From positions 7,558 through 71,557 of the forward strand of contig PLYM01000217.1 in the NCBI GenBank assembly GCA_003153375.1: DNA of 64,000 bases. Direction: 5' to 3'. This document shows, in pieces, positions 53,861 through 58,045 of the stretch. The position numbers and the translations under genes are program-made. Position 1 is the stretch's first letter, and every line of letters starts with the position of its first letter. Below the pieces are notes generated by a model. That model did no database searches and was not told the origin of the DNA. It saw nothing but the letters and a program-made list of their open reading frames with translations. The stretch comes from Planctomycetaceae bacterium. GTDB lineage: Bacteria > Planctomycetota > Planctomycetia > Pirellulales > PALSA-1355.

Positions 53861-54627
53861 CCGCCGGGTAATTTCAGGGTCCACAGCGTGGCTTGGAAGA
53901 TGAGCTTCCGATAGGCCGCCTGCTTCCAGTTGTCGTGGAAGTGCAAACCCGTGAAGCCGAAGGAGCGGCCGCCATCGGGACGCTCCCAGGACCAGGCGAC
54001 GGTTTCCGAGCGACCGTCGATCGTGGCTTGCAAAATCGGCCGGATCTGGCCGCGCGGCTCGACGAACTTGAGCTGATAATAAAACTCGTCGCGGGCGCGA
54101 AAATTCGTCAGGCCCGCGGTGATCGGATGACCTGGGTCGGCAATACGCAGTTCGGTCTCGACGACCTGATACTTGCGGTCCGGACCGCCGTGGCAGCCGC
54201 CTAACAGCTTCAGGAACGGTTCGATCGGTTCGGCGGCTTTGGTGCCCAACGCCCAGTGCAGAGCGACCAGTCCGCCGCCGCGGGCCGCCAGTCGGGCTAA
54301 GGCCTCTTGACGGCGCGGATCGGCTTGCGTCCAACGGGCGCCCTCGGAGAGGAACATCACGACGCCGTCGGCTTCGCCCAGCAGCGCCGGCCCCTCGCTC
54401 CAGGGCTCGTCGGCCGTCACCACGCGAACCTTGAGCCCCGCCGTCGGCTCGAGCAGCTTCGCAAGTTGCTCGAGACCAGCTAAGTACTCGTGCGTCCCAG
54501 CAGGGTGGTTGTCAGGCCCTTGGGCCAGCAGGAGCAACGTCTTGGGCGGTGCGGCGGAGGCGGTGCCGCCCAAACTGGCAAGCGCCAGGAGGACGAACAG
54601 GGAATCAACAAGCGTCGCAAGCCGCAT
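53857..54627 (-). CDS. Exported ThuA-like domain protein
   Basis: Signal peptide, HPAGTHEY, GGGLVALHW, DEFYY, RSFGFTGLH. Confidence 0.85.
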   Translation of the reverse strand: MRLATLVDSLFVLLALASLGGTASAAPPKTLLLLAQGPDNHPAGTHEYLAGLEQLAKLLEPTAGLKVRVVTADEPWSEGPALLGEADGVVMFLSEGARWTQADPRRQEALARLAARGGGLVALHWALGTKAAEPIEPFLKLLGGCHGGPDRKYQVVETELRIADPGHPITAGLTNFRARDEFYYQLKFVEPRGQIRPILQATIDGRSETVAWSWERPDGGRSFGFTGLHFHDNWKQAAYRKLIFQATLWTLKLPGG

Positions 54628-54653
54628 GATCTCCGTCCTCTGCATCAGCGCAC

Positions 54654-54690
54654 AAAAAAAGCCGCCACGGCGCTGTTGGCCGTGGCGGCT
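54654..54690 (-). terminator. Intrinsic terminator after the SHD1 gene
   Basis: 12-bp stem AGCCGCCACGGC/GCCGTGGCGGCT followed by a T-run on the minus strand. Confidence 0.85.
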
Positions 54691-54738
54691 ATTGTAGTCC
54701 AAGTTCTCGTCGCGCTCGAAGTTTCGAGATCGGCGAAA

Positions 54739-55728
54739 TTAGAATTTTCCAGCGAAGCTGGTCGTGTTCTGGCGACGAACGAATTCCAGGTCGTCCTCGC
54801 TCAGGCGATCCAACGACACGGTCGTGTACTTGCCCGTGTCCTTCAGCAGTCGCACGCTCGATTCGCCAATCGTCACGAGGCGGGCATTAATCTGATACTT
54901 GCCGGTGTTGTCGGTCCAAACACGCAAGGCGTTGGCCGTCTCAGCCGGAGCGGTGACATGCGCTGCAGGCAGGACTTCCAACTGACGCGGTTCGGCCTGC
55001 GTGATCACGGCCGGCTTGACGACCTGTTGCGGAGCCACGGCGACCGGCTCGACAAACAGGTCTTCCAACTCGGCGCTGGTGGCCACGGGCGGCACGATGG
55101 CGGCCGGTTGAGCGGCCGACTTATTGTCGTCGTTTTCCTTGAACAGATCGTCGACGTCGTCCGACTTCTTTTCGTCTCCTTCGGGAGCCGCGTTGGTCGT
55201 CGGCGCCGTGGCCGATTTCTTATCGCTGGCGTCGGTGTCTTTGAACAAGTCATCGACGTCGTCGCTGGGCTTGGCCGGCGTGGTTTCTTCGGGCATCTCT
55301 TCCGGCGGGGCGGCCGGCGGAGTCTCTTCGGGCATTTCCTCAAGTGCCGGCTCAGGCGCGGGCACTTCCGCTGCCGGGGCCGGAGCGGGCGCCTTGGGCT
55401 GCGTCAATTCAGGAGCCGGCGCGGGAGGAGGAGCCAGCGCAGGAGTGGGCGCGGGAGCTGGGGTCGGAGAATTTTGCGAGGGCATCGCGGGCGTTGGGCC
55501 GTTGCTGGGAGTGGTCGAACCATCGGAGCAGCCGCCCGAGCAACCGTCCGATACGACGGTCGAACAGCCATCACAGCACGGCGTCGGGGCACACGTCGTC
55601 ACGCATTGCACCGGGTAGCAACGTCGCGGTGCGCAGCAGCGGCTGCGCCAACGGCAGGCTGCCGCGGGATCGACCGCCGTCAAAAGAACCGCAGTCCAAA
55701 CGATGACTGTTTTGCCAATCCGCAGCAT
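54739..55728 (-). CDS. Exported Cys/Pro-rich protein with a C-terminal SHD1 domain
   Basis: Signal peptide, Cys cluster, Pro-rich linker, DDVDDLFK repeats, RVWTDNTGKYQINARL...LSEDDLEFV. Confidence 0.85.
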   Translation of the reverse strand: MLRIGKTVIVWTAVLLTAVDPAAACRWRSRCCAPRRCYPVQCVTTCAPTPCCDGCSTVVSDGCSGGCSDGSTTPSNGPTPAMPSQNSPTPAPAPTPALAPPPAPAPELTQPKAPAPAPAAEVPAPEPALEEMPEETPPAAPPEEMPEETTPAKPSDDVDDLFKDTDASDKKSATAPTTNAAPEGDEKKSDDVDDLFKENDDNKSAAQPAAIVPPVATSAELEDLFVEPVAVAPQQVVKPAVITQAEPRQLEVLPAAHVTAPAETANALRVWTDNTGKYQINARLVTIGESSVRLLKDTGKYTTVSLDRLSEDDLEFVRRQNTTSFAGKF

Positions 55729-55927
55729 CCGAAATCCTCCCTCACCGGAAAAGAGACCGCCGTCAATGTACTTTGACCATTTATGCTAGCTTCACAGAAT
55801 CGGCTCGGCAACCGATGGAAAATCAGTTTTCGGGCCAAATTTGGGTCTGGCCCATCTTCCGCGGGGGCAGATTGACGATAATTCCGCCGGCACCGGTTAG
55901 TCCGGGCGCGCATGCGGCACCCCGCGC

Positions 55928-55965
55928 AAAAAAGAAACCGGCCGAAGCAAGCCTCGGCCGGTTCC
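55928..55965 (-). terminator. Intrinsic terminator
   Basis: GAACCGGCCGAG...TTCGGCCGGTTTC followed by TTTTTT. Confidence 0.85.
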
Positions 55966-56051
55966 ACCATTTCAGGTTCTAAAGGATGTTTGGCTGACTG
56001 ACGTCGCAAAAGACCGCTCTTTCGCGAAGCGTGCAGCCCGTCGGCTGCTCG

Positions 56052-56084
56052 TCAGACGAGCCACCTCTGGTTACCACTACACAT
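56052..56084 (-). CDS. 10-aa small ORF MCSGNQRWLV
   Basis: ATG 4 nt after GAAAGGAGGTGA (56089-56100); TGA at 56052-56054. Confidence 0.4.
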   Translation of the reverse strand: MCSGNQRWLV

Positions 56085-56194
56085 GCAGTCACCTCCTTTC
56101 CAATAATGACCACCCCGTTGGCCACCAGTCCAGCCTGGCTCGCCGCTTGGGCTATCGGTCCCGCCAGTGCCACGTTCGCACCGGCACTAACCGT

Positions 56195-56224
56195 ATGCTA
56201 TTCAGCCTGTGCGCCGATGGTCAA
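56195..56224 (-). promoter_or_regulatory. Sigma70-type promoter
   Basis: TTGACC-N18-TAGCAT. Confidence 0.65.
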
Positions 56225-56329
56225 GTGGATTTGTTGGCCGGGGCCTTGGGGGCGAGCCCCGGGCGAGGCCAGCGGCGGGTTTTCTCGAGAAAATCGCCCC
56301 TGGTTGAGCGGTTCCAGGGGGGCTGCCCG

Positions 56330-58045
56330 CTAGGCAGTTTCCTGCTCTTCGAGCTGGTACTCTTCGATCATCAGCTCGCGGATCTTGAACTTTTGAATCT
56401 TGCCCGTGACGGTCTGCGGAAAGGTCTCGACGAATTTGACGTAGCGCGGCACCTTGTAGCGGGCTAGCCGATCACGGCAAAACGCTCGGATCGCTTCCTC
56501 GTCACACGTGCAGCCCGTCTTCAATTTGATCCAGGCGCACAGCTCCTCGCCATATTTGTGGTCGGGCACGCCCACCACGGCGGCCTGCTCGATCGTCGGA
56601 TGCGTGAACAGGAACTCTTCGATCTCACGCGGGTAGATGTTCTCGCCGCCCCGGATCACCATGTCCTTGATGCGTCCGGTAATGCGGTAGTAGCCGTTGG
56701 GCAGACGGATGGCCAGATCGCCTGAGTGAAGCCAGCCATCCGGATCGATCGCGGCTTGCGTGGCTTCCTGGTTGTGATAGTAGCCGATCATGATCCCATG
56801 TCCGCGGGCGCAGAGCTCGCCCTGTTCGTTGTCGCCCAAAGTCTTGCCGGTTGCCGGATCGACGATCTTCACCTCGACGCCGGGCAATGCGCGGCCGACG
56901 GTCTCGACGCGAATCTCGAGCGGATCGGTGTTACGGCTCTGGGTGATGATGGGCGAGGCCTCGGTCAGACCGTAGCCGATCGTGACCTCGCGCGCCCCCA
57001 GGCGATCGATGACTTGCCGCATGACCTCGATCGGGCAGGGGCTGCCGGCCATGATGCCGGTTCGCAGCGAACTCAGGTCGCGGCCCGGCAGCGTGGGATC
57101 TTGCAACTGGGCGATGAACATCGTCGGGACGCCGTACAACGACGTGGCCCGTTCTTTCTCGATGGCATCGAGCGTGGCTTCGGCATTGAAGCTCTCGGCG
57201 GGGATGACCATGGCCGCGCCGTGAACCACCGAGGTAATCGTGCCCAACACGCAGCCGAAGCAGTGATAGAGCGGCACGGGAATGCACACGCGATCGTCGG
57301 CCGTCAGTGCCTGGCACATCCCGGTGTAGTAGCCGTTGAAGAGCAGGTTGCGATGGCTGAGCGTGGCCGCCTTGGGAAAGCCGGTGGTGCCGGAAGTGTA
57401 TTGGATATTGATCGGTTGGTGGGGTTCCAGAAGCTTGTTCGCCACATCGAGTTTGTCAGCCGACACGCTTTCGGCGCGCTGCTGCATTTCGCGCCAGGTG
57501 ATTCCGCCCACGGGGGCTGCGTCTTCCAGCGCCACGACCCACCGCAGCTTGGGAAAGTCCTTCGATGCAAGCTCGCCGGGCGTGGCAGCCGCCAGTTCCG
57601 GGCAGACTTCGGCCAACATGGCGAAGTAGTCCGACGTCTTGAATTGTCGGACCAGGAACAGCGCGACCGAATCGCTCTGGTTGAGCACGTATTTCAATTC
57701 GAAGGGACGGTAGGCCGGGTTGATGTTCACCAGCACCGCGCCGACGCGTGCGGCGGCGAATTGCAGCACGACCCACTCGGGTACGTTCGTGGCCCAGATC
57801 GCCACGTGCTCGCCGTGACGAATGCCAAGAGCCAACAACCCGCGGGCCGCCAGGTCGACCTGCTCGCAGAACTCCCGATAGCTCAGTCGCAGGCCCAAGG
57901 CCGGAAAGACGAGCGCGTCGTGTTCGGGAAAGCGGCCAGCCGTCTCACGCAAGACCTCGGGCATCGTGAGCCCGTCGACCCAGGGCATCGCATTCTCGTC
58001 GAGGTTCGTTTGCGCCGGGTTCTTCATCGCCTGAACTCTCTCCAT
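56330..58045 (-). CDS. AMP-binding acyl-CoA synthetase
   Basis: YTSGTTGFPKA, YGLTEASP, HSGD, GRIKDMVIRGGENI, TGKIQK. Confidence 0.95.
   Translation of the reverse strand: MERVQAMKNPAQTNLDENAMPWVDGLTMPEVLRETAGRFPEHDALVFPALGLRLSYREFCEQVDLAARGLLALGIRHGEHVAIWATNVPEWVVLQFAAARVGAVLVNINPAYRPFELKYVLNQSDSVALFLVRQFKTSDYFAMLAEVCPELAAATPGELASKDFPKLRWVVALEDAAPVGGITWREMQQRAESVSADKLDVANKLLEPHQPINIQYTSGTTGFPKAATLSHRNLLFNGYYTGMCQALTADDRVCIPVPLYHCFGCVLGTITSVVHGAAMVIPAESFNAEATLDAIEKERATSLYGVPTMFIAQLQDPTLPGRDLSSLRTGIMAGSPCPIEVMRQVIDRLGAREVTIGYGLTEASPIITQSRNTDPLEIRVETVGRALPGVEVKIVDPATGKTLGDNEQGELCARGHGIMIGYYHNQEATQAAIDPDGWLHSGDLAIRLPNGYYRITGRIKDMVIRGGENIYPREIEEFLFTHPTIEQAAVVGVPDHKYGEELCAWIKLKTGCTCDEEAIRAFCRDRLARYKVPRYVKFVETFPQTVTGKIQKFKIRELMIEEYQLEEQETA

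Follow-up and report, generated by a model that had tools for sequence, protein, structure and literature searches.

A structured, single-copy small RNA with an extended Shine-Dalgarno sequence and a mini-ORF, nearly universal in its class of Planctomycetota

The 64,000-nucleotide stretch of a Planctomycetaceae bacterium genome analysed here (assembly GCA_003153375.1, contig PLYM01000217.1, positions 7,558 to 71,557; called the window, and numbered from its first letter) holds, in a 600 nt gap on the minus strand between open reading frames (ORFs) 56330-58045 and 54739-55728, a gene in its own right, encoding a structured and abundant small RNA approximately 260 nt long. The RNA's family, which appears to be previously undescribed, occurs in single copy and almost universally in the class to which the window belongs, and also has relatives in other parts of the phylum. 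The best-fitting explanation, to which we give a probability of about 0.5, is a translated, ribosome-actuated regulatory RNA, a switch whose conformation would report how frequently it is translated. A ribosome-engaging RNA fits best because the transcript is discrete and abundant, the family is near-universal and single-copy, and conservation extends to the Shine-Dalgarno (SD) sequence, the start and the stop but not to the peptide.

The RNA gene, its transcript and its family

A first-pass annotation, made from the letters alone, had placed a promoter, an SD, an ORF, several stems and a terminator at this locus, and all of these were found in place. The promoter TTGACC-N18-TAGCAT (56224-56195) and the strong terminator were both detected by scanning and are kept in relatives, with 3 promoter-like sites in the region compared to 0.1 expected. 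In an alignment of 20 relatives the terminator stem was paired in 97.1% of cells, with 8 of its 14 pairs changed on both sides, and the fold z-score for a 268-nt stretch was -5.3 (0/200 shuffles as good). The features that delimit the gene are:

56219..56224, minus strand: -35 box TTGACC (promoter scan; TTGAC kept across the 20-relative alignment)
56195..56200, minus strand: -10 box TAGCAT (promoter scan; TAnnAT kept in relatives)
55928..56188, minus strand: inferred transcript, approximately 260 nt, its ends taken from promoter and terminator and not mapped
55928..55965, minus strand: intrinsic terminator, a 14-bp stem then a U tract (terminator scan)

Twenty of the 22 public runs listed hold part of the stretch, and 16 of those 20 are recorded as RNA libraries. 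A fraction of 0.2-0.5 of the words sampled from the RNA was present in the 16 RNA runs, which come from many studies. The runs derive from soil, rhizosphere, peat, permafrost, wetland and freshwater, some of the libraries being very small. Contig coverage of region 55600-56500 was tested in four RNA runs from four studies, and RNA contigs were found to cover 55929-56170, 55974-56180, 55972-56085, 56056-56179 and 55988-56181, with the conserved core also covered by several shorter contigs from related strains. No RNA contig covered the flanks 55600-55909 and 56189-56374 in these four runs, and the single flank match in the RNA runs was an unrelated 34 bases at 56375-56408. Contigs from four studies that all end inside the promoter-to-terminator interval are as expected of a discrete, abundant RNA, and the stand-alone transcript proposed in the first-pass annotation agrees with contigs that stay within 55929-56181 and with the kept promoter and terminator. 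The RNA is abundant in soil, peat and wetland metatranscriptomes.

A permissive, E-value-mode scan of 54500-57500 against Rfam 15, a check that the annotation had itself proposed, gave no known family, 6S included. No match came near a gathering score: the best on the RNA strand was Pseudomon-groES (17.9 bits vs a cutoff of 50, E = 4), and a DnaX match (24.2 bits vs a cutoff of 35) lay on the opposite strand, over the terminator. The locus had no match to 6S RNA (RF00013), its consensus fold lacks a helix joining the 5' and 3' ends, and the genome has its full-length 6S-like match at another place, C274:21572-21772, with 40 bits vs a cutoff of 46.4; this is probably the diverged 6S RNA of the lineage. 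Three further identities were rejected in the same way. The one transfer-messenger RNA (tmRNA) that ARAGORN gives for the genome is on contig C273, not on the contig of the window; the signal recognition particle (SRP) RNA (RF00169) match is at C138:54391-54489 (61.1 bits), and the RNase P RNA (RF00010) match at C268:39028-39438 (273.4 bits). Literature searches found no description of the RNA family; a term search of the main text of Weinberg 2017, whose supplements could also bear on this, gave no mention of Planctomycetes. The only printed candidate structured RNA found listed for Planctomycetes in these searches was the Rhodopirellula-1 motif, which is listed also for Proteobacteria and classed as cis-regulatory by Weinberg et al. 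2010 (PMC2864571). Its sequence and structure as given there (an AACAA..GAU..GAAC... stem; PMC2864571) are unrelated to the RNA described here.

The distribution of the family was followed by sequence and by covariance models. Of the 41 genomes searched by BLASTN (40 relatives and the window's own), 22 had a single strong match, with E of ~1e-6 or better. With a model built from close relatives (R1), 70 of 151 sampled genomes of the order were seen to have the RNA, essentially in one copy each, and a model built from 38 more distant members of what we call type B (see below; R2) found it in 130 of 151 genomes of the class (>=90% complete), with one match each except in one genome. The class genomes missed by R2 were concentrated in a few families (f19 0/5, f22 0/3, f113 0/2). 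In a sample of 151 genomes drawn from across the phylum, R2 had matches in 31; of the 144 sampled genomes that lie outside the class, 24 had a match, and matches in other classes were weaker. The sequences of 28 of the matched loci were inspected, and 28 of 29 loci from this sample pass a filter for SD, start, short frame and CGRCGG loop. All of these distribution figures are lower bounds, given sampled genomes, strict filters and roughly calibrated models. Among complete genomes of the window's own family R1 gave weak matches (14-17 bits) in G010, G016 and G024 and none in G007 and G020. A pattern scan of contigs produced many GC-rich chance matches, with 19 of 80 loci among the matches listed fitting the model; the record titles of members read Pirellulales, Pirellulaceae, Mariniblastus, Planctomycetaceae, Gemmataceae and Planctomycetia. 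Two records with other titles were set aside. L107, titled Parafrankia, is probably a chance match (13.4 bits), and L157, from a metagenome-assembled genome (MAG) titled Candidatus Kuenenia stuttgartiensis, is near-identical to the Planctomycetaceae MAG members L099, L184 and L188 and is, on that likeness, probably a mis-binned contig, a binning contaminant.

RNAs that are nearly universal and single-copy across a bacterial class are few, the familiar examples being tmRNA, RNase P RNA, SRP RNA and 6S RNA. A covariance model for the present family would be worthwhile for genome annotation and for the removal of its reads from the 'unknown' part of metatranscriptomes.

The ribosome-binding module, the short frame and the fold

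From 5' to 3' the RNA consists of hairpins P1 and P2, the SD and start codon followed by approximately 15 open bases, the 5' strand of helix P3, hairpin P4, a variable hairpin, the 3' strand of P3, a small hairpin and the terminator. Between promoter and terminator the features are:

56163..56185, minus strand: P1 hairpin GCCGGUGC-GAACGUG-GCACUGGC, with a conserved loop containing ACG (covariation)
56108..56160, minus strand: P2, a long hairpin with apical CCAG-GCUGGA-CUGG (56125-56138), its base abutting the SD (minimum free energy (MFE) fold)
56089..56100, minus strand: extended SD GAAAGGAGGUGA, 12 nt Watson-Crick with the own 16S tail
56052..56084, minus strand: mini-ORF ATG...TGA, MCSGNQRWLV* (SD spacing; frame in 125/125 distinct members)
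56061..56068, minus strand: SD-like motif AGAGGUGG within the ORF, where P3 also has its 5' end (nucleotide-level conservation)
56050..56063, minus strand: P3 5' strand UGGCUCGUCUGACG, which contains the stop codon (98.8% paired)
56034..56047, minus strand: P4 hairpin CAGCC-GACG-GGCUG (97.5% paired; loop CGRCGG in 125/125 distinct members)
56006..56034, minus strand: variable hairpin, core 56015-56031 (length and sequence vary; compensated changes at its base)
55991..56003, minus strand: P3 3' strand CGUCAGUCAGCCA, partner of 56050-56063
55981..55990, minus strand: putative anti-SD AACAUCCUUU, able to pair either with AAAGGA in the SD or with the AGAGG of the ORF
55966..55977, minus strand: small hairpin ACC-UGAAAU-GGU (MFE fold; the relatives' version has other stems, judged by eye)

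The genome's own 16S gene, on contig C140, has the 3' end ...GGAUCACCUCCUUUCU / ...CUGGAUCACCUCCUUUCUAAAGGA, which is complementary to GAAAGGAGGTGA, and the 12 nt of complementarity first claimed against the usual 16S tail therefore hold against the tail of this organism. That 12-mer occurs twice in 6.7 Mb, once at the RNA locus and once antisense to the 16S end. The ribosome-binding site of the RNA is the strongest in the genome. The 16S 3' end lies at approximately 31500-31667 of C140, on the minus strand and approximately 110 nt from the contig end, with tail GGAUCACCUCCUUUCUAAAGGA. Across the 136 members collected, 125 of them distinct (a set whose collection filters are weighed below), GGAGG was present in 125/125 distinct members, with a start codon 5-11 nt downstream (at 7 nt in 67, as for the window ATG) that was ATG in 51, GTG in 51 and TTG in 23. 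Watson-Crick complementarity to the 16S tail ran from 7 to 16 nt in these members and was most often 11-12. A covariation of the SD with the 16S tail was considered and rejected, as the G103 RNA has GGAGGCG yet that genome has the usual 16S tail; the tail was found in three of the five genomes searched and was identical in all three.

The 10-codon ORF that the annotation saw behind the SD is present, and SD, start and stop are kept in the family. The frame is 10-17 codons long in the 125 distinct members, and its stop (TGA in 59, TAA in 38, TAG in 28) stands 3-15 nt before the CGRCGG loop in every one; L012 carries a one-codon, in-frame insertion. Type A, which comprises the window, much of its order and members titled Gemmataceae, encodes M-C-S-G-N-Q-R-W-L-V, and type B a peptide like M-L-S-E-C-T-S-Q-R-G-G-C-G; the peptides of other classes are unrelated (for example MGSPNRRPSS and MKFRELRGSPT). 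The motif GAGGUGG(C) is common to types A and B, read in differing frames (AGG UGG CUC in A vs cGA GGU GGC in B), and GAGGUGG starts 13-14 nt before the stop in 112 of the 125 members. Peptide residues 2-5 vary freely, and the residues that are conserved are those with codons paired in P3. What is kept is the start, the stop and the position, and not the product, so that translation of the frame, as a transit of ribosomes rather than as a source of peptide, seems from these comparisons to be what matters. A +1 frameshift at GUC-UGA-C into a 64-codon frame was set aside, as that frame crosses the variable hairpin, which differs in length in relatives.

The consensus fold of 20 relatives (RNAalifold) was paired in 95.8% of cells, with changes on both sides in 20 of its 47 pairs; none of 500 shuffles reached it on any of five measures, and slid controls were far lower. 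P1 was paired in 96.2% of cells, with 5 of 8 pairs changed on both sides, and in type-B relatives in 96.5%, with all 7 of 7 pairs so changed. The 5' hairpin first proposed, AGUGCC/GGCACU, can be formed in the window, but the register that covaries is GCCGGUGC-GAACGUG-GCACUGGC. For P2 pairing in the apical stem was 92%, and 3 of its 5 pairs have changed on both sides, the lower stem being judged by eye. The long-range stem proposed over the stop codon (56050-56063 with 55991-56003), which is P3, was borne out at 98.8% paired and covaries; the P4 hairpin, proposed as GCAGCC-gacg-GGCUGC and kept as CAGCC-GACG-GGCUG, was borne out at 97.5% paired. Even the middle base of the stop codon covaries with the distal strand, UGA being found with CGUCAG in 16 and UAA with CGUUAG in 4 of the 20 sequences, and the stop codon is thus under two constraints at once. 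Of the two mutually exclusive stems that the annotation saw at the stop, the long-range one stands, but the local GCUCG/CGAGC pairing is broken in L011, L015, L040, L041, L044 and L070.

The loops of P1 and P4 could also be in contact (CG-Y with R-CG), the bases being complementary in 103 of 118 cases (U/A 55, C/G 48); the 15 non-complementary cases are C/A in 8, G/A in 4 and U/G in 3, the last of which look like mis-called P4 loops. This contact is only a lead, as the pattern follows the split between types A and B. In L224, L225 and L233, from families outside the class, both P1 and P4 carry the hexaloop CGACGG, and in L224 and L225 CGACGG also caps the alternative 3:4 hairpin described next, giving three identical loops per RNA.

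Four type-B segments (1, GGCUGC; 2, CAGCC; 3, GGCUGCC; 4, GGCAGCC) can pair in two ways, as fold X (1 with 4 and 2 with 3) or as fold Y (3 with 4, and 1 with the P4 loop), and both folds beat the shuffle and slide controls. In the type-B 3:4 helix pairing reached 97.7%, and 4 of the 7 pairs have changed on both sides; in one clade the same columns covary with two partners. As this dual covariation is a single event, a type-B switch between folds X and Y is suggested by the alignment, not proven. When the window RNA was folded with a ribosome masking its stop codon, P3 and P4 opened and the 3' arm of P4 was predicted to pair with the P3 3' strand.

The pairing of AACAUCCUUU back to the SD that the annotation had proposed fared less well. 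It is predicted in the window, where in the MFE fold UCCUUU pairs with AAAGGA of the SD (and, with a ribosome mask at the start, with AGAGG instead), but the other 19 close relatives lack AACAUCCUUU and show UUCUG in its place, and shuffles reach the longest SD-complementary run of the window in a fraction of 0.185 of trials. Nor did the 3' part of type A show excess SD complementarity (4.83 vs 4.94 nt when shuffled, 58 members). In type B, GAUCACC, a copy of the 16S tail, stands in a 3' hairpin in 19 of 53 members, and it is predicted to pair with the SD at a probability above 0.9 in L051 and L057, the two such members among those listed. The 3' domain of L051, L054, L116 and L198 reads CGUAGGGAUCACCU(C), which resembles the 16S 3' end (CCGUAGGGGAACC...GGAUCACCUCC) minus the helix-45 tip; this may be chance.

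Possible modes of action

P1 and P2 make up a 5' domain, which is followed by a ribosome-loading module of SD, start codon at optimal spacing and approximately 15 unstructured bases, and then by a 3' domain in which the second half of the frame and the stop codon form one strand of P3, which encloses the invariant P4. In the proposed ribosome-actuated switch, ribosomes would load on the free SD and start codon, and translating ribosomes would unwind P3; a ribosome at the stop would also cover P4, so that each passage would reset the fold of the 3' domain, and in type-B relatives the four strands could then re-pair as the alternative hairpin. The peptide would be a by-product. The output could be the freed 3' strand, or the 16S-tail copy, acting on mRNAs or a protein, or could be the stability of the RNA itself. 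Translation of the frame, the switching of the fold and a downstream effect are all what we infer here. A tentative extension, which we consider rather unlikely, would make the RNA a fifth 'housekeeping' RNA of Planctomycetes: a decoy mini-mRNA produced in large amounts by every cell to engage its own ribosomes, which would gauge or govern free-ribosome capacity globally, or offer new 30S subunits a test track. The 16S tail would then have two points of capture, the extended SD at initiation and, at termination, the internal GAGGUGG that precedes the stop by 13-14 nt, and each passage would flip a bistable 3' domain, which in type B would also display the 16S-tail copy GGAUCACCU.

Several results weigh against the switch. 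The RNA contigs are uninformative on transcript ends, strand and translation. As the filters used in collecting members demanded an SD, a start and an ORF, the 125/125 totals are partly built in; independent support comes from covariance-model matches found without these filters, because they pass them (all of the order loci, and the 28 of 29 phylum loci). By thermodynamic folding the SD core has a mean unpaired probability of 0.31, vs 0.34 for the whole RNA, with no consistent SD partner. A stop before P4 also occurs in frame +2 in 109 and in frame +1 in 56 of the 125 members, and an in-frame stop alone is weak evidence because the other frames so often carry one. The evidence for fold Y comes mostly from one clade (L088, L140, L174, L196) and from invariant bases, and type A, to which the window belongs, is predicted in fold X only.

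Among the alternatives, a decoy or sponge that is not translated, in which SD and start would only dock the 30S, or in which repeated ACG/GCG loops and SD-like motifs would bind a protein, while the 3' domain blocks elongation, is in our view unlikely. It would explain an SD complementarity of 7-16 nt, far above ordinary needs, with a 12-mer found otherwise only at the 16S gene; the ACG/GCG core shared by the P1 and P4 loops, with CGACGG three times in the distant L224 and L225; the 16S-tail copy in type B (19/53 members); and a housekeeping-like abundance and distribution. Docking, however, needs no fixed stop, yet the stop is kept through TGA/TAA/TAG changes with compensating partners, and codon-sized insertions preserve the frame (L012, L083, L108). 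A sponge of the CsrA type was rejected, as the GGA of the P2 loop, a CsrA-type site, is not kept in type B. Preservation of start, stop and frame in all members would equally suit a micropeptide mRNA, in which a peptide of 10-17 residues is functional and the RNA structure only tunes its synthesis. Types A and B share a recurring core, C-[ST]-x-[NS]-Q-R, in which the Arg is encoded differently (AGG vs CGA), and SGNQRWL is common to members in records titled Pirellulales and Gemmataceae. We nevertheless hold this to be improbable: residues 2-5 are freely variable, the conserved residues coincide with P3-paired bases, the C-terminal half changes with the frame (QRWLV vs QRGGCG), the peptides of other classes are unrelated to these, and the peptide has no signal sequence or hydrophobic stretch.

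Three readings had been offered in the first-pass annotation, and of these the ribosome-engaging regulatory RNA fits best, with no support found for the other two: in the window's subgroup, a type-I-toxin-antitoxin-like or micropeptide mRNA with its SD sequestered by the 3' end, and a translation-coupled attenuator for the downstream SHD1 gene. The attenuator, a cis-acting leader-peptide control of read-through into that SHD1-domain gene, would account for the layout of short SD-led ORF, alternative helices and terminator, and in a survey of 39 loci with 1.5-kb flanks an SHD1-like gene did lie downstream on the same strand in 15, all of family f1, throughout which it is kept beside the RNA. 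Outside f1 the downstream genes are unrelated and on either strand, often the opposite one (DDE transposase, SDR, arginine decarboxylase, GNAT, OYE, methyltransferases, ArsR, TPR, PMT_2). A strong terminator stands approximately 200 nt from the SHD1 gene, the RNA contigs stop short of that gene, and no segment competing with the terminator stem was seen in alignments and ribosome-masked folds, in which no dedicated search for one was made. With synteny confined to f1, the attenuator is very improbable. More improbable still, and hardly credible, is a type I toxin-antitoxin-like mRNA silenced by its 3' end folding onto the SD, to which the UCCUUU-AAAGGA pairing in the window MFE fold and the pairing of SD with the 16S-tail copy in some type-B members would lend themselves. 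Type I toxins are hydrophobic, usually of approximately 18 or more residues and paired with an antisense RNA, and their loci are spread in patchy, multi-copy fashion; here the peptide (MCSGNQRWLV) has 10 residues and is polar, too short and not hydrophobic, the family's peptides are variable, the anti-SD is not conserved in the window's subgroup (type A), and one conserved copy per genome is found across the class. The attenuator and type I readings both fail the tests made here.

The switch also shares traits with known systems. Small RNAs (sRNAs) of dual function with a translated small ORF include SgrS/SgrT, RNAIII/hld and SR1/SR1P; like them, the RNA is a stand-alone, structured transcript with its own promoter and intrinsic terminator and an SD-led short frame, but their peptides are conserved and mostly 26 or more residues long, and they have targets with which they base-pair, whereas here a frame of 10-17 codons encodes an unconserved peptide in a class-wide family. 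With tmRNA it has in common that it is abundant, single-copy, widely conserved and structured, with a frame of approximately ten codons whose stop lies in a helix, and that it would engage ribosomes; unlike tmRNA it has an SD and start codon and no tRNA-like domain, and a normal tmRNA is encoded on C273. The rnTrpL RNA of Sinorhizobium is described as a trans-acting attenuator RNA (PMC6614838). Leader-peptide attenuators and ermC-type translational attenuation can be compared as well. In these systems, as proposed here, a short frame with a strong SD ends in alternative helices ahead of a terminator, and the position of the ribosome decides the fold; unlike them, the present RNA lacks a conserved downstream gene, a run of regulatory codons and a second SD that the switch would release, and no antiterminator was seen in the alignments and folds, in which no dedicated search for one was made.

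Features normally found apart are combined in this RNA: a maximal SD, a frame whose product appears unimportant, and a covarying fold that has to be opened for a ribosome to translate the frame. If translation does set its conformation, the RNA would be a naturally occurring switch, actuated by ribosomes and acting in trans, through which the sensing or control of translation capacity in Planctomycetes could be approached directly. Some relatives are genetically tractable, which makes the proposal testable.

Neighbouring genes and smaller features of the locus

The promoter of some type-B loci has an addition of its own. A conserved T-rich stretch, (T)TTTCTCTTGCC, lies upstream in L053, L056, L057, L059, L067, L068, L096, L116 and L125 and reaches the -35 box, and looks like an UP-element-like extension of a strong promoter.

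The SHD1 protein of the window (54739-55728, minus strand; Pfam SHD1) has an N-terminal hydrophobic segment, a Cys-rich stretch, a long low-complexity region rich in Pro, Ala and Glu, and the SHD1 domain at its C-terminus. Directly past the stop of its gene, at 54654-54732 on the minus strand, stands a strong terminator-like hairpin, GCCGCCACGG...CCGUGGCGGC, followed by a U tract, over which a weak chance match to the Burkholderia sRNA ncS54 was obtained (19.6 bits vs a cutoff of 43). On the upstream side, 16 of the 39 surveyed loci, all of family f1, have a gene with PUA and S-adenosylmethionine (SAM)-methyltransferase domains (its Pfam content makes it RlmI-like). In the window the upstream neighbour is an acyl-CoA-synthetase-like ORF (56330-58045), at the place where the L002-L018 comparison has the PUA/SAM-methyltransferase gene, which points to a local rearrangement in the window.

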